64,000 nt of DNA from a virus (taxonomy: Duplodnaviria; Caudoviricetes), in the IMG/VR virus record IMGVR_UViG_3300020577_007013; one strand, 5' to 3'. Positions within the stretch are counted from its first letter, which is position 1; every line of letters starts with the position of its first letter. Below are positions 20,802 to 63,138 of this stretch, piece after piece. The notes below the pieces were generated by a model that ran no database searches, had not been told where the DNA came from, and worked only from the letters and a program-made list of their open reading frames with translations. The translations under genes were made by a program, and so were the position numbers.

Positions 20802-21476
20802 TTAATGAATCGGTGAACCTTGATGTTGTCTCATCAAATCATTGTATTTCATTCTCATGGATTTTTTTACGAATTTAGGAGCTCCGATAAGTTTGCAAGC
20901 TTTGGAAAGTTTGGGTTTTCTCATTGAGAGAAGAGTATCGAAAATTTGTTTTTCAGTTTCAGTTAAGAGTGAGAACCAAGATTGCATGAAGTCTCTCTGT
21001 AGTAGGTTATTGAGAATGTGATTGGAAGCTTTGAAAGCCATTTGATCAGCTTTCCTTTTCTTATTACTTTCGAAATCTTCGAGATTGTCTTGATCGGTTC
21101 TAAGAAACTCTCTCTTTTTGGCAGAGACATAAGCCCAACCATTATTATGGTTGAACTTTCCTATCTCCTGTTCCCATAACATTCGTATATTGTAGGGCTT
21201 ATTGGGATCGAGTCTCATAATGTCAAATCGATTGAGTGACTCTAATAGACAAGTCTTCACCTCACTTACACATTCATCAAATGTGAGTCTCATTGAGCTT
21301 GGAAATTTTCGTCTCAATTTATGAGCGTAATCGAATATCGCTCTCTGATATCTGTCGATAATTACGATTAAAGATTTTTGAAGTCCTCCTTGATATGTGA
21401 GAGTGAGTTCTAAGTCATCCCAATTTTCTATATTTGAGGTATCGATTGTTTGAATAGTCGGGCTTTGTTGAGTCAT
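20802..21476 (-). CDS. phage sigma-factor-like protein (ECF/SigH-like)
   Basis: region-2-like DLELTLTYQGG...IIDRYQRAIFDYAHK...DECVSE...LLESLNRFD and region-4-like LTETEKQIF...KACKLIG. Confidence 0.6.
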   Translation of the reverse strand: MTQQSPTIQTIDTSNIENWDDLELTLTYQGGLQKSLIVIIDRYQRAIFDYAHKLRRKFPSSMRLTFDECVSEVKTCLLESLNRFDIMRLDPNKPYNIRMLWEQEIGKFNHNNGWAYVSAKKREFLRTDQDNLEDFESNKKRKADQMAFKASNHILNNLLQRDFMQSWFSLLTETEKQIFDTLLSMRKPKLSKACKLIGAPKFVKKSMRMKYNDLMRQHQGSPIH

Positions 21477-22394: not shown

Positions 22395-23393
22395 TTAGAC
22401 TGTCTTGATGTACTTTTCTACTCGTGAAATTAGAGAGGCTTTATTCTTCAATACTGAGGGAGTGACTTTCATCTTCATGCCGATTGTCGAAGCATACTGA
22501 GCAATTTCCTTTGCTTTCATTCCCGTTAATTCTTCTTTTGTTTTGAATTTCGAAGTTGTAGGGGTGGTTCTCTTGACTACTGAAGAGGAGATCTGCTTTT
22601 CATCTCTATAGACTCCCACAGATTTGTATTGACAGACTCTCATTTTCATGTGATTATCGTATTCAGGAACAGAGACCACATCTTTAGGGTGAACGAGAAC
22701 TTCTATATGGAGAGTTCCTGGATAAGAGAATGAATAAGAGAAAGATGCGACATGAAGACCATTCGAACAATCGACTGTTCTATCTGGATTGACTTTCTTT
22801 CTCTCCATCTTGACAATCTTTCCTTTTGAATTGTCGAAAGTTCCTGTATAGCCATCCACCCATTTGTGGTCGTAAATTTTACCAGTCTTGATCAGATCGT
22901 CAACTTCTGACTGTGACATAAAAGAATGTTTGTCATTCTTGTCTCTCAGAACTTGAACTTTCTTATATGCTAAGAAGCGACCGTCTTCTGTAATTGGATG
23001 ATGATTCTTCTCAAGAAAAGTATACAGCTCTTCAATCGAGATTTTTGAAGGATTCAATTTGAGATTGTTCCAGAAGTTGATAAGTGGTTGGAGCTTTTCA
23101 TCTTCTTTAGAGAACTCCATTATCTTAATTTCTAAAGCTCTAGGAACAGGTTTGTTCTGACCTTTAAGATAAAATTTTCCGTCTTTCTCTCTGATATGCT
23201 CAGCATATTTTTTAGCTACTTCTTTCACAGGAAAGACTAGAGAGTTCAACGGATTGAGATTCTTCTCTTTAATAAGAGAGATAAGCCCTTCATAGAGTTC
23301 ATTGTCTCTATGAATCGTTTTTACCTTAGAACCTAAGGTAAAGGTAATTCCTTCCTTAGTTATTATGTACTTGATTTTTCCTTTGTTTTGCAT
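22395..23393 (-). CDS. rIIB: rIIB-like protein
   Basis: PLINFWNNLKLNPS, ELYTFL, PITEDGRFLAYKKV, CSNGLHV, VHPKDVVSVP, KMRVCQY. Confidence 0.92.
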   Translation of the reverse strand: MQNKGKIKYIITKEGITFTLGSKVKTIHRDNELYEGLISLIKEKNLNPLNSLVFPVKEVAKKYAEHIREKDGKFYLKGQNKPVPRALEIKIMEFSKEDEKLQPLINFWNNLKLNPSKISIEELYTFLEKNHHPITEDGRFLAYKKVQVLRDKNDKHSFMSQSEVDDLIKTGKIYDHKWVDGYTGTFDNSKGKIVKMERKKVNPDRTVDCSNGLHVASFSYSFSYPGTLHIEVLVHPKDVVSVPEYDNHMKMRVCQYKSVGVYRDEKQISSSVVKRTTPTTSKFKTKEELTGMKAKEIAQYASTIGMKMKVTPSVLKNKASLISRVEKYIKTV

Positions 23394-25671
23394 ATTTCCT
23401 CTTAAATTTTTCTAATTCTAAATAATAACGAATTTTCGAAGGAGAGCTTCTATGGACTAACTGAGTAATGAGAGGATTCTGTTTAAGAAATAGAGTCTGA
23501 CCTTCAAGTAATTCATCAATTTCTTTTGTGGTGAATCCTTGAATTCCTAATTCATCTATACATTTTTTGAAGAGTGATGAATATGAAGAGTATCGATTGT
23601 ATTCTGTAAACTTCGAAACCCCTTCTTTTAATTTTGTTGGAAGATAATCAATATAATCGTTTGAACTTCTCAATTTTTCTGAAATTGCTGAATGGTAAAT
23701 CGATTTTAACTCCTCTGTCGGAGTTATGTTCATGAGAAACTCTTTAGGAGTATTCATTATGGAAGAAATTAAAGAATGCTTTTTCGATCCCTCTTCAACA
23801 TAGTAAACAGATTTATTAAAAATGACTGAGCAACAAAGAGAAGCAAACTTGGATTGTATCGGTCCGATTTCCTTATCATAAGTTTCAAAAAGTAGATCAT
23901 CTCTATTTTCTATCTTTGAAAGATCCAGTCTGACCTTATAAGGCTGTTGATTTGAAGCTGATGTGAAATAAAGTCCTTTGACTATAGTGTGATCTTTCTC
24001 TCTTTTTTGTCTAGGCTTTTTCTCAAATTGTACTGTATCGAGATTAATGAGTCCTAAATCATAAATGAGACTTCTCTTAAATCGAGAGCATCTATCCATT
24101 AAACGATGTAGATCTCTTATTGAATAGTATCCATACGAATACGTATTCTTCTGTAAAGACAAAATTCTCTCAGTAAGAGACTCTTTATCATCGGTGGTCA
24201 AGAGCTTCTCTTTTAATCTGAAAATTTTATGAATTTTCTTCAAATGTTCTACTGCATTATTTTTAGGACTTATAATAACGAATCTATGACCTAAGACAGA
24301 CTCATAAAATGAGGATCCGTTGAAAAAATATCGATCATAAAGGTCTGAAGTATACTCCATCTTAGAGCTTATAAAAATCGAGTCTCCCATGATCGATTTA
24401 AAGGATTGAACGTTTGTCCTAGCTGAATTGGAGAGCTTACTATCTTTCATGACTCTGATTACTTCGAAATCTTCAAACATTTTGTCAAATTGGATAAAAG
24501 GCTTTCCGTTAAAAGATAGACTAGTAGCTACCAAATCCAAGTACGGCTTTATACAACAATAAAGAAGCTTTTCTTTTTCTGAATTTCCTACTATAATAGT
24601 GTTCATATCAGGATTCGAATGAAGAACTGAAGTCTCAACAGCAGTGAGGAACTCGAAATAATTATTTTGACTTTTAAGAGAGTCTGTCAGAATTCTGTAA
24701 GCTTCTTCCATAAGAAGACTTTGAGAATCTTGAAGCTTTGACTTAGTTTTTTCAGTAAATTGTAAATTTTCTCGATTGACTGTAATGTCAAGCTCAGAGT
24801 TCTTGAATTTGAGAACTTTTAGATAAGGCGGAGAGTAATGTCCAGTTTCATTTGCCTCAAATGGAGGACTGAACAGATAAGGTATCTCGTCAATAAGACA
24901 AATCCATTGATCGTTGGAGACTCTCTTCGATATAAGATGATTTCTATTTGTTAGAATAGAAAAATTGAATTCAGGATAATCTGTAAGATTACCTAAAGAA
25001 AGATCCCATCGATTTGTGAGTTCGAATTTAGGTTTAACAGACCAAAAGAGTGTGTAGAAGATAAGTTCATCTTCAAATATAGAGACATCTCCAATCTTGA
25101 TTGGAATGATAATTGAAGTTCCGTTCGGTTTCTTTGTTTTTCTTTCATCTAAAAGAAGAATTTTTCCTTTTTGAGTCTCGTCGACTACAGCAACGTAGAG
25201 ATATTTTTTTCCATCTACAATGGTTTCAATTGAGAATTTATCTGTATAAGAAAAAGGAGTTTTAGCTCCTAATCCAAATCCACCAGTAAGTTCGTTAGTA
25301 TTTCGTTTTGTTGATGCTGCGTATCTTAAGAAGACATTTTTCATTCTGTCAGGAGAAATTCCAGGACCTTCGTCTGAAATTGTAAGATTGTAAGAGTGGC
25401 TTTTGACAACGTCTCTCTCATATTCATGAGACTCGTTATTCAGTACCTTCTCCATCTTTACTGAAATAGGAACATTTCCTTTTCCTACCTCTCTGTTAGC
25501 GTCTCTTGCATTTGAGCAAATTTCTCTGCAAATGGATCCTATCGGATTTCCGTAGACTTTAGATCTGAGAATATCAAAGACAAGTCCCATATCAGCTTCA
25601 GATATGGAGAATGAAGTCTCCTCAAATGAAGAAGATTGTTCTACAAAAATATCTGGTTTTGGAATTTCCAT
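23356..25671 (-). CDS. rIIA: rIIA-like protein (N-terminal GHKL ATPase)
   Basis: REICSNARDA, DEGPGIS, STKRNTNELTGGFGLGAKTPFSY; directly upstream of rIIB. Confidence 0.92.
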   Translation of the reverse strand: MEIPKPDIFVEQSSSFEETSFSISEADMGLVFDILRSKVYGNPIGSICREICSNARDANREVGKGNVPISVKMEKVLNNESHEYERDVVKSHSYNLTISDEGPGISPDRMKNVFLRYAASTKRNTNELTGGFGLGAKTPFSYTDKFSIETIVDGKKYLYVAVVDETQKGKILLLDERKTKKPNGTSIIIPIKIGDVSIFEDELIFYTLFWSVKPKFELTNRWDLSLGNLTDYPEFNFSILTNRNHLISKRVSNDQWICLIDEIPYLFSPPFEANETGHYSPPYLKVLKFKNSELDITVNRENLQFTEKTKSKLQDSQSLLMEEAYRILTDSLKSQNNYFEFLTAVETSVLHSNPDMNTIIVGNSEKEKLLYCCIKPYLDLVATSLSFNGKPFIQFDKMFEDFEVIRVMKDSKLSNSARTNVQSFKSIMGDSIFISSKMEYTSDLYDRYFFNGSSFYESVLGHRFVIISPKNNAVEHLKKIHKIFRLKEKLLTTDDKESLTERILSLQKNTYSYGYYSIRDLHRLMDRCSRFKRSLIYDLGLINLDTVQFEKKPRQKREKDHTIVKGLYFTSASNQQPYKVRLDLSKIENRDDLLFETYDKEIGPIQSKFASLCCSVIFNKSVYYVEEGSKKHSLISSIMNTPKEFLMNITPTEELKSIYHSAISEKLRSSNDYIDYLPTKLKEGVSKFTEYNRYSSYSSLFKKCIDELGIQGFTTKEIDELLEGQTLFLKQNPLITQLVHRSSPSKIRYYLELEKFKRKYAKQRKNQVHNN

Positions 25672-59268: not shown

Positions 59269-59304
59269 TCGATCAATTGAGAAACTGAGACACTAACTAC
59301 TACG

Positions 59305-59865
59305 ATGGAAACATTCTCTTCACTTTTAAAGTTTGCGTCAGATAAACCATTCGCTTTCAGCTCGATTCTTCTCATAATTTTGGGATTCATTTTTCTCTTC
59401 TTGAAGACTTTTAGAGTCTCCTTTAAAAAAGGACCTATACCGAATATCGAGTCGAGATCTAGTCTTGAGTCCAATAAACAACTTGTAGAAGCTCATTCAA
59501 AAATAAAAGAACTTGAGGATAAACTCTTACATTCACATGTTCCAGATTTTATTAAAAAGACCGATAACGGTGAGTACATCGGTTTCATGATTGCTCCTAA
59601 ACCATATATTACAGTATGGGTCGACGGAAACTGGAGTAGTGAAGAACATTTTCAAATCTTTGATCGCTTCGAAAGATTATGGGATGATGAACAAGACATT
59701 TATCTTGTAGGAAAAAGTCCAAATCTCCCATCTGATCTTTATCATATTATTGAGAAAAAAGCTAAGTCACTCCCTAAACTTTCTATTCATTGCTCTCACC
59801 AATTAGGAGAATTTTTTACTAGATATTTCTCCGATTTCAAAAATGTCGAAGTCCTCATGAGGTAA
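59305..59865 (+). CDS. membrane-anchored protein with putative STAS (anti-sigma-antagonist-like) domain
   Basis: TM helix aa 17-33, short coiled coil, then ITVWVDGNW-helix-DIYL...LPS-helix pattern; context next to kinase and PP2C. Confidence 0.45.
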   Translation: METFSSLLKFASDKPFAFSSILLIILGFIFLFLKTFRVSFKKGPIPNIESRSSLESNKQLVEAHSKIKELEDKLLHSHVPDFIKKTDNGEYIGFMIAPKPYITVWVDGNWSSEEHFQIFDRFERLWDDEQDIYLVGKSPNLPSDLYHIIEKKAKSLPKLSIHCSHQLGEFFTRYFSDFKNVEVLMR

Positions 59866-59866
59866 A

Positions 59867-60262
59867 ATGTATCACGTCTCACTCAACGATGTCACAGCAA
59901 TTAAAAAAATCCAAGAACATTACAAAAATAATTTTGACATAAAGAACATAGCTCAAGAGATACTTCAAAATTCTTTAAATGAAAATCAGAAAGGGGAGAT
60001 GTTCATAAGTGATAAACTCATTCTCTTCCGTGTGTATCTAGGAACTCAGGAATTGGTCGATCTCACGGAGACTAAGATCAATCAAGGAATAGAGTTCGCA
60101 AAACTATGTCAACAAAACAAAAAAGCCAGATTAGATTCATTAGAAAAAATTCGACCATCGAAAAAACATGGAAGAGGATTTCTCAGTATACTATATCATG
60201 GTTGGGACTTGGTTACCTTACCAAATCACACGGAAGTATTGATAGCGGCGATAAAAGCTTAA
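59867..60262 (+). CDS. RsbW/SpoIIAB-like GHKL kinase (anti-sigma-type), compact
   Basis: N-box IAQEILQNSL and G2-box HGRGFLSI in 131 aa. Confidence 0.6.
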   Translation: MYHVSLNDVTAIKKIQEHYKNNFDIKNIAQEILQNSLNENQKGEMFISDKLILFRVYLGTQELVDLTETKINQGIEFAKLCQQNKKARLDSLEKIRPSKKHGRGFLSILYHGWDLVTLPNHTEVLIAAIKA

Positions 60263-61506
60263 AAGAACAACTCTACGACATAAGTTTTGATACCTCGAAG
60301 AGAATAAAACTCTTTTCTCTTCTAATCAGACTCTTCATTTCTATCTTACTTCTCATAATCTTAGCCATCGACGTTCATATAGGACTCTATCCTATTGAGA
60401 GCTCAGTCTCCCCTCTCTCAATTCTTTTTATTTACACACTTCTAGTGATCTATATGCTTAATTTGTGTAAAAAATCAGAAAGTTTCAAGTCTCTCAATGG
60501 AGTAATGGACATTGTCTATGTGACATGTGAAATTCTCGCTGTATACTTTGCTATTCTAACATTTCCGACTCATCCAGCAAATATGTATTCTAATTCACTT
60601 AAAGGATTCTGGTCGGTCCTTATTGTTCTCTCAGTCTTCACAGGAAAATGGTATTATGGATTTTATTCAGGAGGATTGGTCGCCGTTCTCAATGCTTCCA
60701 CTGCTTACTTCTACTCAAAGATTAAAAGAGATTTTGAAATTGTAGGAATTGACTTTCAGAAAGTTGATCCTCTCTTTCAAATTTTCGTTTGGTCTCTATA
60801 TTATTTTTTACAAGGAGCTCTTATCTCTTTTCCATTTTATCTTTTTAGGAAACAACAGTCTATGGCTCTGAATGCAAAAACAGAGAATATTGTAGCAAGA
60901 CCCTATTATGACTTATGTTTGGAAGACGGTCAACATTTAGTCGGAGATTATCTCATCAATAAGGTCTCTTCATCTAATGACGTAATCGGTGCTGATTTTA
61001 CTTCTATGAAGCCTACAATTGCAGACCATTGTTATGGTGCCTTAATTATAGGAGATGTGATAGGACACGGTCTCAATAGAAGTCCAGGTGCAATTATTGC
61101 TATGGCAGCTTTTAAGTCTTGTTACACTACTGATCCGGTTTACGTTCAAGAAACGATAAATAGAGTTCTTGTTGATGTCGATAAGTCTAGTGGTGGGAAG
61201 GCAATCTGCCTTTCTATTAGGCTCATGGAAAATGGAATTATAGAATACTCTGGAAAAATTGATAGTTTTACTTTAGTGGAAAAAGAGAATGTTAGGTCAA
61301 TTTCACTTTCTTCAAAAGGAGAGATTCTAGGAATTCAGCCTCTTCTATTGGTTACTGAAAAAAGTGTAATCTCTATGAATGTAGGAGACTCACTTTATCT
61401 CAAGACTGACGGGATTCATGATCTTCAAGATGACAAGACCGTTGTAATTATCACTAGATTGTCAGACGAAGAGAGACTCGCTATTTCTGAGAGTTCGAAA
61501 GACTAG
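60106..61506 (+). CDS. multi-TM SpoIIE/RsbU-type PP2C phosphatase
   Basis: about 6-7 TM helices, then IGADF, IIGDVIGHG, LKTDGI, QDDKTVV (all metal-binding Asp motifs). Confidence 0.88.
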   Translation: MSTKQKSQIRFIRKNSTIEKTWKRISQYTISWLGLGYLTKSHGSIDSGDKSLKEQLYDISFDTSKRIKLFSLLIRLFISILLLIILAIDVHIGLYPIESSVSPLSILFIYTLLVIYMLNLCKKSESFKSLNGVMDIVYVTCEILAVYFAILTFPTHPANMYSNSLKGFWSVLIVLSVFTGKWYYGFYSGGLVAVLNASTAYFYSKIKRDFEIVGIDFQKVDPLFQIFVWSLYYFLQGALISFPFYLFRKQQSMALNAKTENIVARPYYDLCLEDGQHLVGDYLINKVSSSNDVIGADFTSMKPTIADHCYGALIIGDVIGHGLNRSPGAIIAMAAFKSCYTTDPVYVQETINRVLVDVDKSSGGKAICLSIRLMENGIIEYSGKIDSFTLVEKENVRSISLSSKGEILGIQPLLLVTEKSVISMNVGDSLYLKTDGIHDLQDDKTVVIITRLSDEERLAISESSKD

Positions 61507-61511
61507 CTAAC

Positions 61512-61661
61512 ATGAAGATTATTCTTTCATTATTCTTTACATCCGTAGTCTGTGCAGCTTCGTTCGCTGTTTTTTGTCTCGATATCATAATTATGCTCAC
61601 TTCATTCGTTCTTTTATTTCCATTGGGGAAAAATGCAAACGCTAATGCCATACAAAAGTAA
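61512..61661 (+). CDS. small hydrophobic membrane peptide (49 aa)
   Basis: my translation MKIILSLFFTSVVCAASFAVFCLDIIIMLTSFVLLFPLGKNANANAIQK. Confidence 0.5.
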   Translation: MKIILSLFFTSVVCAASFAVFCLDIIIMLTSFVLLFPLGKNANANAIQK

Positions 61662-62046
61662 ATTTGAAGAAGCTGGACTTCTTAAGAATTTTATTCTTTC
61701 TACCTTTCTCTTAAGTCCTGAATTCGTAAGTGGACAAGGGGAATTTGAAAGACCTCACACAACCGAGTCCCTTGAAGCTGCTAAGAGAGTGAATAAAGCT
61801 ACATATAAATTCGTTTTCAATAGACTTAAAAAAATGGAGTCCAAAGGAAAACGAATTAAGAAAGTCGAAGGTAATGAGTCGACGAATACAATTGAAGTAG
61901 ACTATGAGACAAAAACAGGTGAACTGAAACATAAGACTATTAAGTTCACACCTAATGGTACCTATATAAATGATCAGCTAATGAGACTCGATAATGAGAG
62001 TCTCTTAAATAAAATGAGATCATTTCAAAATCAATTTGAGAGCTAA
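61645..62046 (+). CDS. putative internal head protein
   Basis: MPYKSKFEEA N-terminal motif followed by a hydrophobic stretch. Confidence 0.6.
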   Translation: MPYKSKFEEAGLLKNFILSTFLLSPEFVSGQGEFERPHTTESLEAAKRVNKATYKFVFNRLKKMESKGKRIKKVEGNESTNTIEVDYETKTGELKHKTIKFTPNGTYINDQLMRLDNESLLNKMRSFQNQFES

Positions 62047-63138
62047 ATGAAAAAGCCAAAAGTTTCGAAGTATATCGACAGATTTGAAGGAGTGACTGAC
62101 TTTACTTGTGAAATTTGTGGTCACTTTATAGAGTTCAAACATCATAAAGTCCCCTTGACAGCTGTCTCGAATCATATAAAGAACCATAAAATTACTTCTA
62201 AAGAATACTATAGAAGATATTTGAAAAAACCAGAAGAAGGGATTTGTCAGAATCCTGATTGTAGAGGACCTACTAAGCAATGCTCTATTAGGTGGGGTTA
62301 CAAGCCATATTGCACCATTCAATGCTTTAATAGCATGGATGCATCCTTAAAAGGACACTACTCTGAAAATTTAAGTCACAGTCTTTCAGTAGCGCATAAA
62401 GAAGGGAGAAAAATTGGTTACTGGACTACAAATGAACCATGGAATAAAGGTCTGACATCTAAGTCAAATAAAAAAATGAGAGATCTCCTTAAAAAAGGGG
62501 TAGAGACCAAGAGAAAAAATGGAACATTAACTCCTTGGAATAAAGGGATGAAAGGACAATACTCAGTTGTTTGTAAAAATCCAGAACAAAGATCAAGAAG
62601 AATATCAGAAGCTCTCACAGGAAAAAAACTTTCAGAGAATCACAAAAAGAAATTAAGAGATCATAGAGTCCAGGACAATTTCGGTAAAGGTGGGAAGTTC
62701 TCCCAACTATTATTTAGAGAACTTAATGATAAGCTCTCACAAATTAGACAAGACTTCGAAATACATTTCGGAGATTTTGATAGAGAGACAAAGACCCTTT
62801 TAAGAAAAGAGCGCTCCGTTAATGTAATCGGAATTTCCAAAACTCATAAAATGAGATATCTTGATTGCTATCTTAAAATAGACAACAGAAAGATAAATAT
62901 AGAGTTCGATGAAAAAGGACATTCTAAGGAATGGAGAATGTCAGAAGACTTAGAAAGAGAATGGGAACTTTTACAAAGAGTACCTGAATTAGAAATCTAC
63001 CGTATACGATTTAAGGACTTTCTAGAAGGACAAACAAAAATCGTAGATGACTTGATAAAAATAATTTTAGATAAAGACTCAAATGTAGATAATAAATATT
63101 TATCTTTAACAAAACTTAAGGAAACTTCAAATGTATAG
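62047..63138 (+). mobile_element. free-standing homing endonuclease (Zn fingers, NUMOD3-like PWNKG repeats, PD-(D/E)xK)
   Basis: CEIC...HIKNH, CQNPDC, PWNKG twice, RISEALTGKKLSENHK, YLDCY...NIEFDEKGH. Confidence 0.8.

Follow-up and report, generated by a model that had tools for sequence, protein, structure and literature searches.

A predicted SiaABC-type partner-switching module encoded by an uncultured phage

Three adjacent phage genes, here called A, B and C, probably encode a partner-switching phospho-module of the type formed by SiaA, SiaB and SiaC, for which we infer phosphotransfer, membrane topology, signal and output. In silico analysis showed the membership of protein C in the PP2C family, the folds of proteins A and B, the conservation of the trio, and a confidently predicted interface in which Ser143 of A meets Glu31 of B. 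Since the predicted shapes of A, B and C match those of SiaC, SiaB and SiaA, the phage appears to carry its own membrane-linked switch. A partner-switching architecture had been proposed in a preliminary description of this DNA. It is supported by the predicted A–B complex, the Ser143–Glu31 contact, the recurring A-B-C gene order and the constant −1 overlap of B and C, and it can be refined to the SiaABC type with a membrane-anchored SiaC-like protein.

Gene layout and distribution of the trio

The window, the whole stretch of 64 kb that was analysed, contains the reading frames of A, B, C and a short membrane peptide, D, as described before (Table 1). Tail-fibre and late genes are found upstream of the trio.

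Table 1. Features of the module region (positions in the window)
Feature	Position	Strand	Description
ACTAA motif	59292..59296	+	8 nt 5' of the gene A ATG; read directly
Gene A	59305..59865	+	186 aa; ORF reading
Gene B	59867..60262	+	131 aa; ORF reading
Gene C	60106..61506	+	466 aa from ATG 60106; 434 aa from alternative start TTG 60202
B/C dual-coding overlap	60106..60262	+	C frame offset −1 from B
Gene D	61512..61661	+	49 aa, hydrophobic; TM segment by hydropathy

The preliminary description had made its proposal depend on conservation of the trio in relatives, and the A-B-C order indeed recurs in 13 divergent metagenomic loci at 40–80% identity. The neighbours of the trio vary among these loci and include tail fibres, RNR, DNA pol III alpha and others. 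Gene D is different in this respect: a counterpart by position (46 aa) occurs only in the closest relative, L001, and at none of the other loci. The reading frame and the hydrophobicity of the peptide stand, but its place in the module does not. Because it is not conserved across the loci, D was not counted as a core part, and on sequence grounds it is an accessory gene outside the conserved module. The ACTAA motif in front of gene A is present as reported and is a possible promoter element. It is not enriched at this spacing (ACTAA-N5-9-ATG occurs 14 times in the window, with 14.1 expected by chance), nor is it conserved upstream of gene A among the relatives' loci.

We regard the window phage as having no cultured relative; no cultured phage has a DNA polymerase that is more than 28% identical to its own. 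Searches by blastn and tblastn with the region, with C and with the C of L016, a distant phage of 225 kb, gave no match in 50,697 phage records. Scans with the C profile returned nothing from IMG/VR and GTDB genomes and one locus from metagenomes. In L016 the module pair directly precedes genes for an SLT transglycosylase and a C39 peptidase. The window phage also encodes an RIIA homologue and is T4-like in that respect.

Predicted folds of A and B and their complex

Protein A has a single strong hydrophobic segment at residues 15–33 according to hydropathy. Its predicted layout comprises an N-terminal TM helix (~15–33), a long linker helix (51–75) and a SiaC-like/STAS-like domain (76–186). 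In the AF2 models, which for both A and B were built on shallow alignments of 12–13 rows, this domain is built of six strands and three helices, the composition that has been reported for SiaC, and the top structural match of A among 48,161 chains is SiaC. A shape search of the ESM Atlas ranked a SpoIIAA-like protein first (TM 0.54 by the match), which is a weak lead. The SiaC family PF09345 (DUF1987) was matched by none of the 12 A-family members at E<=10, a run of its profile on the L016 record gave zero matches, and the STAS profiles PF01740 and PF13466 did not match the A family. The earlier STAS-like assignment thus stands for the fold, which is SiaC-like and STAS-related in the predicted structure, but not for the sequence profile. 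The model supports a SiaC-like (STAS-related) domain as the cytoplasmic part of A, nearer to SiaC than to STAS proper.

Ser143 in the NLPSDL motif, proposed earlier as a phosphorylated residue, remains a good candidate acceptor. It sits within the invariant block P139-N140-x-P142-S143-D144 of the family alignment and, in the model of A, opens helix 143–155 directly after strand 131–135. This position at the N-terminus of helix alpha2 equals that of Thr68 in SiaC and of Ser58 in the 4QTP antagonist.

For protein B, the predicted structure shows a Bergerat fold that spans the whole protein, and the top match among the same 48,161 chains is SiaB, with UsfX as a close structural neighbour. To our knowledge UsfX is an anti-sigma factor and not a kinase. 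The segments AQE31..QN35SL and H101-G-R-G104-F-L are invariant in 13 of 13 sequences; across the 20 sequences of the wider family E31 never changes, and conservation is 90% or more at N35, G102 and G104. Both E31 and N35 lie on helix 23–36, the first long helix of the model, consistent with the N-box that had been recognized before. The accompanying G2 assignment needs a qualification: H101-G102-R103-G104 precedes helix 103–110 and is conserved, yet it is shorter than the canonical GxxGxG box. The G1 box (DxGxG), which SpoIIAB has and which the preliminary description had suspected to be missing, is absent after strand 51–57 in B and in every relative examined, and the position of the adenine-binding Asp is occupied by different residues among family members (Y, H, D, E, N, Q, R). 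Because of these two features ATP binding by B stays putative. HATPase_c was matched by one of the 13 B members, at E 0.19 only, and HATPase_c_2 by none. Modelling suggests that B is a soluble, minimal SiaB/SpoIIAB-like GHKL-fold protein, presumably the Ser kinase and switch partner of A.

Sequence profiles of Pfam, PHROG, NCBIfam and PDB assigned neither A nor B to a family. The best PDB sequence matches of their profiles, a designed helical protein and haemagglutinin stalks, are noise. A B-profile search of 1.84 billion proteins gave 16 hits, all of them small orphan proteins. The structure check that had been suggested for the two proteins therefore yielded the SiaC/STAS-like and GHKL folds as predictions and no match to a sequence family.

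Complex prediction for B with residues 76–186 of A, which had also been named as a check, gave an ipSAE of 0.71 (runs 0.67, 0.71 and 0.74) against 0.01 for the best control; resemblance to solved complexes may contribute to this value, and the prediction may borrow from the solved SiaB–SiaC and SpoIIAB–SpoIIAA complexes. Of 80 solved complexes 58 reach this ipSAE mark, and of 110 mismatched pairs only 2 do. The runs share at least 75% of their contacts, with a partner pLDDT of at least 79. In the predicted complex Ser143 of A is placed against the N-box residue Glu31 of B and also contacts Leu106 and Ser107. Invariant residues of B are concentrated at the interface (14 observed, 7.2 expected, p=0.0016), which points to a cognate pair; for A the numbers are 10 observed and 6.8 expected (p=0.086).

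The matches to SiaB and SiaC could in principle reflect common alpha/beta sandwich arrangements, A and B being small alpha/beta proteins of unrelated function, such as structural proteins or accessories of lysis, whose genes lie beside that of a phosphatase by chance. We consider such a coincidence highly improbable, since A and B each find as top match the cognate chains of one and the same complex, the runners-up are sister families of the same signalling system, and the third gene encodes the matching enzyme class. Moreover, the motifs are located where the fold predicts them (E..N in helix 2, GxG before helix 5, Ser at the alpha2 N-cap), and the predicted complex has kinase–substrate geometry with controls at or below 0.01.

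The likeness of both folds to bacterial switch proteins would also fit a different scenario, in which A and/or B mimic SiaC/SiaB- or RsbV/RsbW-like proteins and reprogramme the host via its own partner switch. Candidate targets would be a switch acting on a diguanylate cyclase, an ABC exporter or a stress sigma factor. A distant module-carrying phage also encodes a GGDEF-EAL protein, as might be expected for such hijacking, but the gene is located ~100 kb from the module and its product has no SiaD-like stalk. Other observations argue against host hijacking and make it unlikely: all three components are supplied by the phage and co-vary as a unit, the invariant residues of B gather at the predicted interface with A, and no sequence likeness to cellular SiaB or SiaC was found, even by profiles against the 1.84 billion proteins.

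The predicted membrane phosphatase and the B/C overlap

Protein C matches Pfam SpoIIE (PF07228) with an E-value of 1.2e-7 and 32.4 bits, above the curated cut-off of 25. The domain is carried by 20 of 20 C homologues and was found in the L016 copy at E 2.1e-8. By its sequence C belongs to the PP2C/SpoIIE phosphatase family. All four Asp motifs of a PP2C, already noted in the preliminary description, are invariant in 13 homologues, namely GAD297, GD317xxGHG (G320-H321-G322), TD435G and D442-D443-KT. Against PDB sequences the best match of the C profile, a SpoIIE-family phosphatase, reached only E 0.34. The multi-TM character of C was likewise confirmed, with three segments that pass a strict hydropathy threshold and three further hydrophobic stretches recognized by eye. 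The predicted layout begins with a basic N-terminal tail, which is followed by about six TM segments (~66–246) and then by the PP2C/SpoIIE domain (~270–455). The TM part resembles sensor domains of the MASE/6TM_PilS type in language-model features only (score 0.88–0.90), and this is a lead only.

A feature absent from the preliminary description is that the frame of C overlaps the 3' end of B by 61–157 nt. The C frame is open through this end of B, always in the −1 frame, in 13 of 13 loci. An ATG start for C at an overlap of 157–160 nt is present in 9 of the 13, an NTG at an overlap of 61 nt in all of them; the clade that lacks the ATG at 157–160 nt consists of L003, L006, L009 and L013. The region of B inside the overlap comprises the G2 box, the last helix and two strands. 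Codons are frozen here (His101 is CAT in 12 of 12 and Lys99 is AAA in 11 of 11 sequences) and synonymous differences are lower in the overlap, 0.468 versus 0.575. A programmed −1 frameshift that would fuse B to C at the CAAAAAAG run (60118–60125) was considered and not adopted, because no slippery heptamer is conserved, B is a full-length GHKL fold of 131–139 aa at every locus, and the in-frame ATG of C opens the overlap in the nine loci mentioned.

The missing G1 box and the variable adenine-Asp position of B raise the question whether B is a kinase at all. It could be a pseudokinase with an anti-sigma fold that does not bind ATP and acts by binding only, sequestering A or another partner, for which UsfX-type anti-sigma factors are a precedent. 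Protein C would then act on a phosphoprotein of a host kinase, either A itself, with the phosphate added by an enzyme of the host, or host proteins that have no relation to A. This explanation seems rather unlikely to us. The invariant E31 and the at least 90% conservation of N35, G102 and G104 in the wider family are what a Mg-ATP site would require. The Ser143 of A, invariant as well, is predicted to lie against Glu31, and the best structural match, SiaB, has kinase activity, though of an 'unusual' kind. That B is co-translated with a PP2C of its own also argues for a cognate phospho-substrate.

Possible mechanism, output and significance

SiaA, SiaB and SiaC (with SiaD) form a threonine-phosphorylation partner switch in Pseudomonas aeruginosa (PDB 6KKO, 6K4F, 6KKP, 7E6G; PMC7647112, PMC7278518, PMC8457831), and SiaB was experimentally shown to be the SiaC kinase, with a predicted catalytic Glu (PMC7647112; PMC7278518). 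The phage proteins share with this system, in their predicted roles, a membrane-anchored PP2C, a small GHKL-like kinase and a phosphoprotein of six strands and three helices whose acceptor lies at the N-terminus of alpha2. However, there is no detectable sequence similarity, and the module is carried by a phage. SiaC is soluble and has a Thr acceptor, whereas A is tethered by its own TM helix and has a candidate Ser; SiaB has ~170–180 aa compared to 131 in B; SiaA combines two TM segments with a HAMP domain, whereas C has no HAMP and its TM segments number about six. Furthermore, the phage B and C genes overlap by 61–157 nt and there is no adjacent diguanylate cyclase.

The differences from SpoIIE/SpoIIAA/SpoIIAB of Bacillus (PDB 1TH8, 1TID, 1L0O) are the lack of an identified sigma target, the lack of a Pfam STAS or HATPase_c_2 match in the A/B pair, the absence of the G1 box from B as compared to SpoIIAB, and, relative to SpoIIAA, the membrane anchor of A and its domain being nearer to SiaC. 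RsbU/RsbV/RsbW and the mycobacterial UsfX with RsfA/RsfB (6M36, 6M37, 8IH8, 8JZT, 3KE6) are soluble systems with a sigma factor as output.

In the mechanism that we propose, the trio would assemble on the inner membrane of the host, on the cytoplasmic side, with C as a sensor of about six TM segments fused to a PP2C phosphatase and A anchored through its N-terminal TM helix and long linker helix. Unphosphorylated A would be bound by B and then phosphorylated on Ser143 at the N-terminus of alpha2, with Glu31 and Asn35 of the N-box and the G2-like H-G-R-G of B acting in catalysis. The phosphate would be taken off A by C once the membrane domain of C perceives a cue from the envelope or the membrane. 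The phospho-state of A could thus set the availability of B, or of a free face of A, for a third partner.

As output we prefer, if only tentatively, that the module governs some late event at the envelope, for instance the timing or the inhibition of lysis. It is more doubtful that the trio is an envelope sensor which, through reversible phosphorylation of a serine, sets the lysis time or brings about lysis inhibition or a response to superinfection. In that case the six-TM phosphatase would read the membrane or periplasmic state, and the phospho-state of the tethered SiaC-like A would gate a holin, transglycosylase or spanin-type partner. The link to lysis is drawn from gene position only, with late and tail-fibre genes upstream and, in L016, the SLT and C39 genes directly downstream. 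The lysis inhibition of T4 (holin T, antiholins RI/RIII) offers a functional analogy only: it is also a phage membrane device in which a late lysis decision answers an envelope signal, but the protein families and the chemistry are different and phosphorylation is not involved. A GGDEF output was dropped because no GGDEF protein was found within the 64-kb window. The sigma factor proposed at 20802 (ORF 20802–21476) is unsupported, also as a target, with a PHROG sigma match at E 0.0066 only and no match in Pfam, NCBIfam or PDB.

Partner-switching phospho-modules such as SpoIIE/AA/AB, RsbU/V/W and SiaA/B/C are seen as circuits that serve stress responses and development in cells, and a literature search for a phage-encoded module returned no report. 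Here an uncultured giant-phage lineage is predicted to carry a complete, compact copy of unusual form, in which two of the three proteins are membrane proteins and a conserved dual-coding overlap joins the kinase-like gene to the phosphatase gene. The analysis provides a fold-level annotation for two orphan families, one of which, that of B, has 16 relatives in 1.84 billion sequences. As a GHKL protein of 131 aa that has no G1 box, B lends itself to testing what a kinase of this class minimally requires. If the prediction holds, the phage senses the host envelope via its own receptor-phosphatase and converts the cue to a protein–protein switch, which would be a novel type of phage decision device and possibly a new route to lysis timing. 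Should the lysis reading be true, the module would be a counterpart of T4 lysis inhibition that works through phosphorylation, and the first partner-switching circuit shown to be viral.

The A-B-C cassette and its phosphatase

Four plus-strand open reading frames follow one another in the window, as the preliminary description stated. They are A, a membrane-anchored SiaC-like or STAS-like protein; B, a GHKL-like presumed kinase; C, a multi-spanning PP2C; and D, a hydrophobic peptide. For C the gene caller picked the TTG start (P0001).

Features of the A-B-C region
Feature	Position	Strand	Description
A	59305-59865	+	186 aa ORF
B	59867-60262	+	131 aa ORF
C	stop at 61506	+	466 aa from ATG 60106, or 434 aa from TTG 60202
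D	61512-61661	+	49 aa ORF
Putative dual-coding B-C overlap	60106-60262 and equivalent stretch in L001-L015		61 to 157-160 nt, -1 frame

In the DNA retrieved around metagenomic C homologues, the order A homologue (163-202 aa), B homologue (131-139 aa), C was kept at every locus with enough upstream sequence to judge it (L001, L003, L004, L006, L008, L009, L010, L011, L012, L013 and L014, plus one place without DNA). The trio recurs in these other metagenomic loci; a search for it in further phage genomes had been proposed as a check. Tail fibres adjoin the trio in the window. L003, L006 and L009 have RNR and a KTSC protein beside it, L008 and L011 a zeta-toxin-like kinase with DNA pol III alpha, and L004 a 1384-aa protein. 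The same gene order with changing neighbours argues that A, B and C travel as a cassette. Peptide D, which had been listed with the module, has a counterpart in L001 alone among the relatives' loci. A B-family profile run against 1.84 billion representatives recovered 16 proteins only, among them P0031 of locus L015 (about 31% identity), again preceded by an A homologue and overlapped at the 3' end by a C-type N-terminus. Precomputed Pfam labels point to mobile elements near the cassette in two relatives: IS605 OrfB/TnpB (Cas12f-like) in L009 (10796-11125), and in L008 (7249-8019) a gene resembling NUMOD3 homing endonucleases.

The assignment of C as a PP2C with Asp motifs is confirmed. Pfam SpoIIE/PP2C matches C above the curated cut-off, and the same domain occurs in 20/20 metagenomic C homologues (46-70% identity). 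An alignment of 13 sequences shows no variation in the metal-binding motifs (GAD297, GD317-x-x-GHG, TD435G, D442-D443-KT), nor in many polar residues of the hydrophobic N-terminal half; the latter is what a sensor domain would be expected to show. Hydropathy gives three segments above a strict threshold, and three more hydrophobic stretches were seen by eye (about 166-180, 184-204 and 222-246). With six transmembrane segments and a basic N-terminus, the phosphatase would lie on the cytoplasmic side. A resemblance of the membrane half to MASE/6TM_PilS sensor domains in language-model features reaches only 0.88-0.90 and is no more than a lead.

Folds of A and B and their predicted complex

No sequence-family match was found for A or B; both count as orphans at the sequence level and are not filed under PF09345, STAS or HATPase_c. 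Their structural-match Z scores each exceed the tool's background of 7-8 only modestly, and a chance resemblance of folds should be considered. It is unlikely, since A and B, searched separately, each pick the cognate chains of one crystal complex (SiaC and SiaB), the next-best matches belong to sister families within that signalling system, and the trio's remaining gene encodes the matching phosphatase.

The residues expected of such a switch can be located. In SiaC the phosphorylated Thr68 lies at the N-terminus of helix alpha2, and the same holds for Ser58 in the 4QTP antagonist (PMC7647112). Ser143 of A (P-N-x-P-S-D) is invariant and opens helix 143-155 right after strand 131-135; when the model of residues 78-186 is aligned to SiaC 2-122, residue 143 falls at about SiaC residue 68. 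B carries an ExxxN N-box (E31, N35) on helix 23-36 and a G2-box-like H-G-R-G (101-104) preceding helix 103-110. Across the widened B family E31 never varies, and conservation is at least 90% at N35, G102 and G104. The G1 box, already noted as not evident in B, is missing in every B-family member, which makes nucleotide binding the weakest link. SiaB itself has been shown by experiment to be a kinase, an 'unusual' one, and Glu61 is its predicted catalytic residue (PMC7278518, PMC7647112).

Complex prediction, proposed earlier as a check, gives support, short of proof, to A-B binding. For B with the presumed cytoplasmic domain A(76-186) ipSAE was 0.71 (runs 0.67, 0.71, 0.74) versus 0.01 for the best control, a value reached by 58/80 solved complexes and 2/110 mismatched pairs. 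At least 75% of contacts were shared across runs and partner pLDDT was at least 79. The model may draw on the solved SiaB-SiaC or SpoIIAB-SpoIIAA complexes. The predicted interface comprises the 138-144 loop and helices of A, and helices 10-34 and the 101-112 region of B, with Ser143 contacting Glu31, Leu106 and Ser107. It contains 14 invariant B residues against 7.2 expected (p=0.0016), and 10 invariant A residues against 6.8, a weak enrichment (p=0.086).

The B-C overlap and the phage setting

The C frame is open across the 3' end of B in 13/13 loci, always in -1. An ATG at 157-160 nt overlap stands right after an in-frame stop in 9/13 loci; in all eight of these whose B codons were read, the codon preceding B's Cys codon ends in A, creating that ATG. 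An NTG at 61 nt overlap is common to all loci. Within the overlap some codons of B are frozen: His101 is CAT in 12/12 (Trp in the C frame) and Lys99 is AAA in 11/11, and synonymous differences between identical residues drop from 0.575 to 0.468. We read the overlap as a conserved dual-coding segment through which kinase and phosphatase would be translationally coupled. Fusion of B to C by a -1 frameshift was considered but not adopted, there being no conserved slippery site to support it. L003, L006, L009 and L013 have a conserved upstream C-frame peptide (..KIIR.TAKAFQKSWQR..) lacking an ATG, GTG or TTG start.

Judged from its genes, the window is phage DNA, with PHROG matches to DNA polymerase, helicase, ribonucleotide reductase, an SbcC-like protein, an RIIA homologue and NAD-ligase; the gene preceding A's neighbour matches tail-fibre PHROGs. 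No close cultured phage was found. The large RIIA lysis-inhibitor homologue lies at 23356-25671 (PHROG 612, E 6e-58), and the adjoining ORF 22395-23393 may be a RIIB-like partner. Overlapping the end of D is a 137-aa gene (61633-62046) with N-terminus MQTLMPYKSKFEE, the L001 homologue starting MTPYVRKFENLEE; its start fits an N-terminal 'KYKSYFEE'-type motif. A 363-aa ORF (62047-63138) has Cys/His-rich N-terminal repeats; its sole match, a weak one, is to the restriction-endonuclease-like MTES_1575 domain (E 0.098), and a homing or HNH-type nuclease is possible.

The ACTAA reported 8 nt 5' of A's ATG is present, yet it is no evidence of late expression: ACTAA-N5-9-ATG occurs 14 times in the window versus 14.1 in shuffles, and ACTAA is absent upstream of A in relatives.

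Output and overall reading

The suggested sigma-factor target, ORF 20802-21476, gained no support, with a PHROG sigma match at E 0.0066 only and none in Pfam, NCBIfam or PDB sequences. Other clues come from position. P0042, a distant B relative, lies in locus L016 of a 225,628-bp IMG/VR contig (IMGVR_UViG_3300028804_000001), where B and a Pfam-confirmed PP2C come after tail-fibre genes. Directly after C, overlapping its end by 86 nt, is a TM-anchored SLT lytic transglycosylase (E 6e-16), followed by a Peptidase_C39_2 (C39-like) protein (E 5e-8); this arrangement is at L016 7530-8900. An A-like TM protein, P0043 (1662-2165, motif A-N-V-T-S-S-L), lies 3.8 kb upstream, with fibre genes between it and B. 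About 100 kb off, the same record encodes a 478-aa GGDEF-EAL protein (L017 1426-2862; GGDEF E 4e-45, motif AGDEF); in the window neither an equivalent nor any GGDEF protein was found. In one clade, L003 (7326-7760), L006 (6317-6745) and L009 (6149-6562), the gene after C encodes a small protein (about 140 aa) whose N-terminus combines a signal peptide with a lipobox-like Cys (..FASC, ..SISC, ..VTSC), possibly a lipoprotein and perhaps spanin-like. These neighbours are positional hints to a late envelope or lysis function, not evidence of mechanism.

No described phage partner switch was found in the literature searched. The architecture first proposed is supported, and can now be specified as a partner switch of the SiaA/SiaB/SiaC type. 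Our claim is that it works like SiaABC, with phosphotransfer, signal and output inferred. Together, the data support A-B-C as a SiaABC-like system of an uncultured giant-phage lineage, in which the SiaC-like protein is anchored in the membrane, its GHKL partner is minimal and lacks the G1 box, and the PP2C is polytopic.
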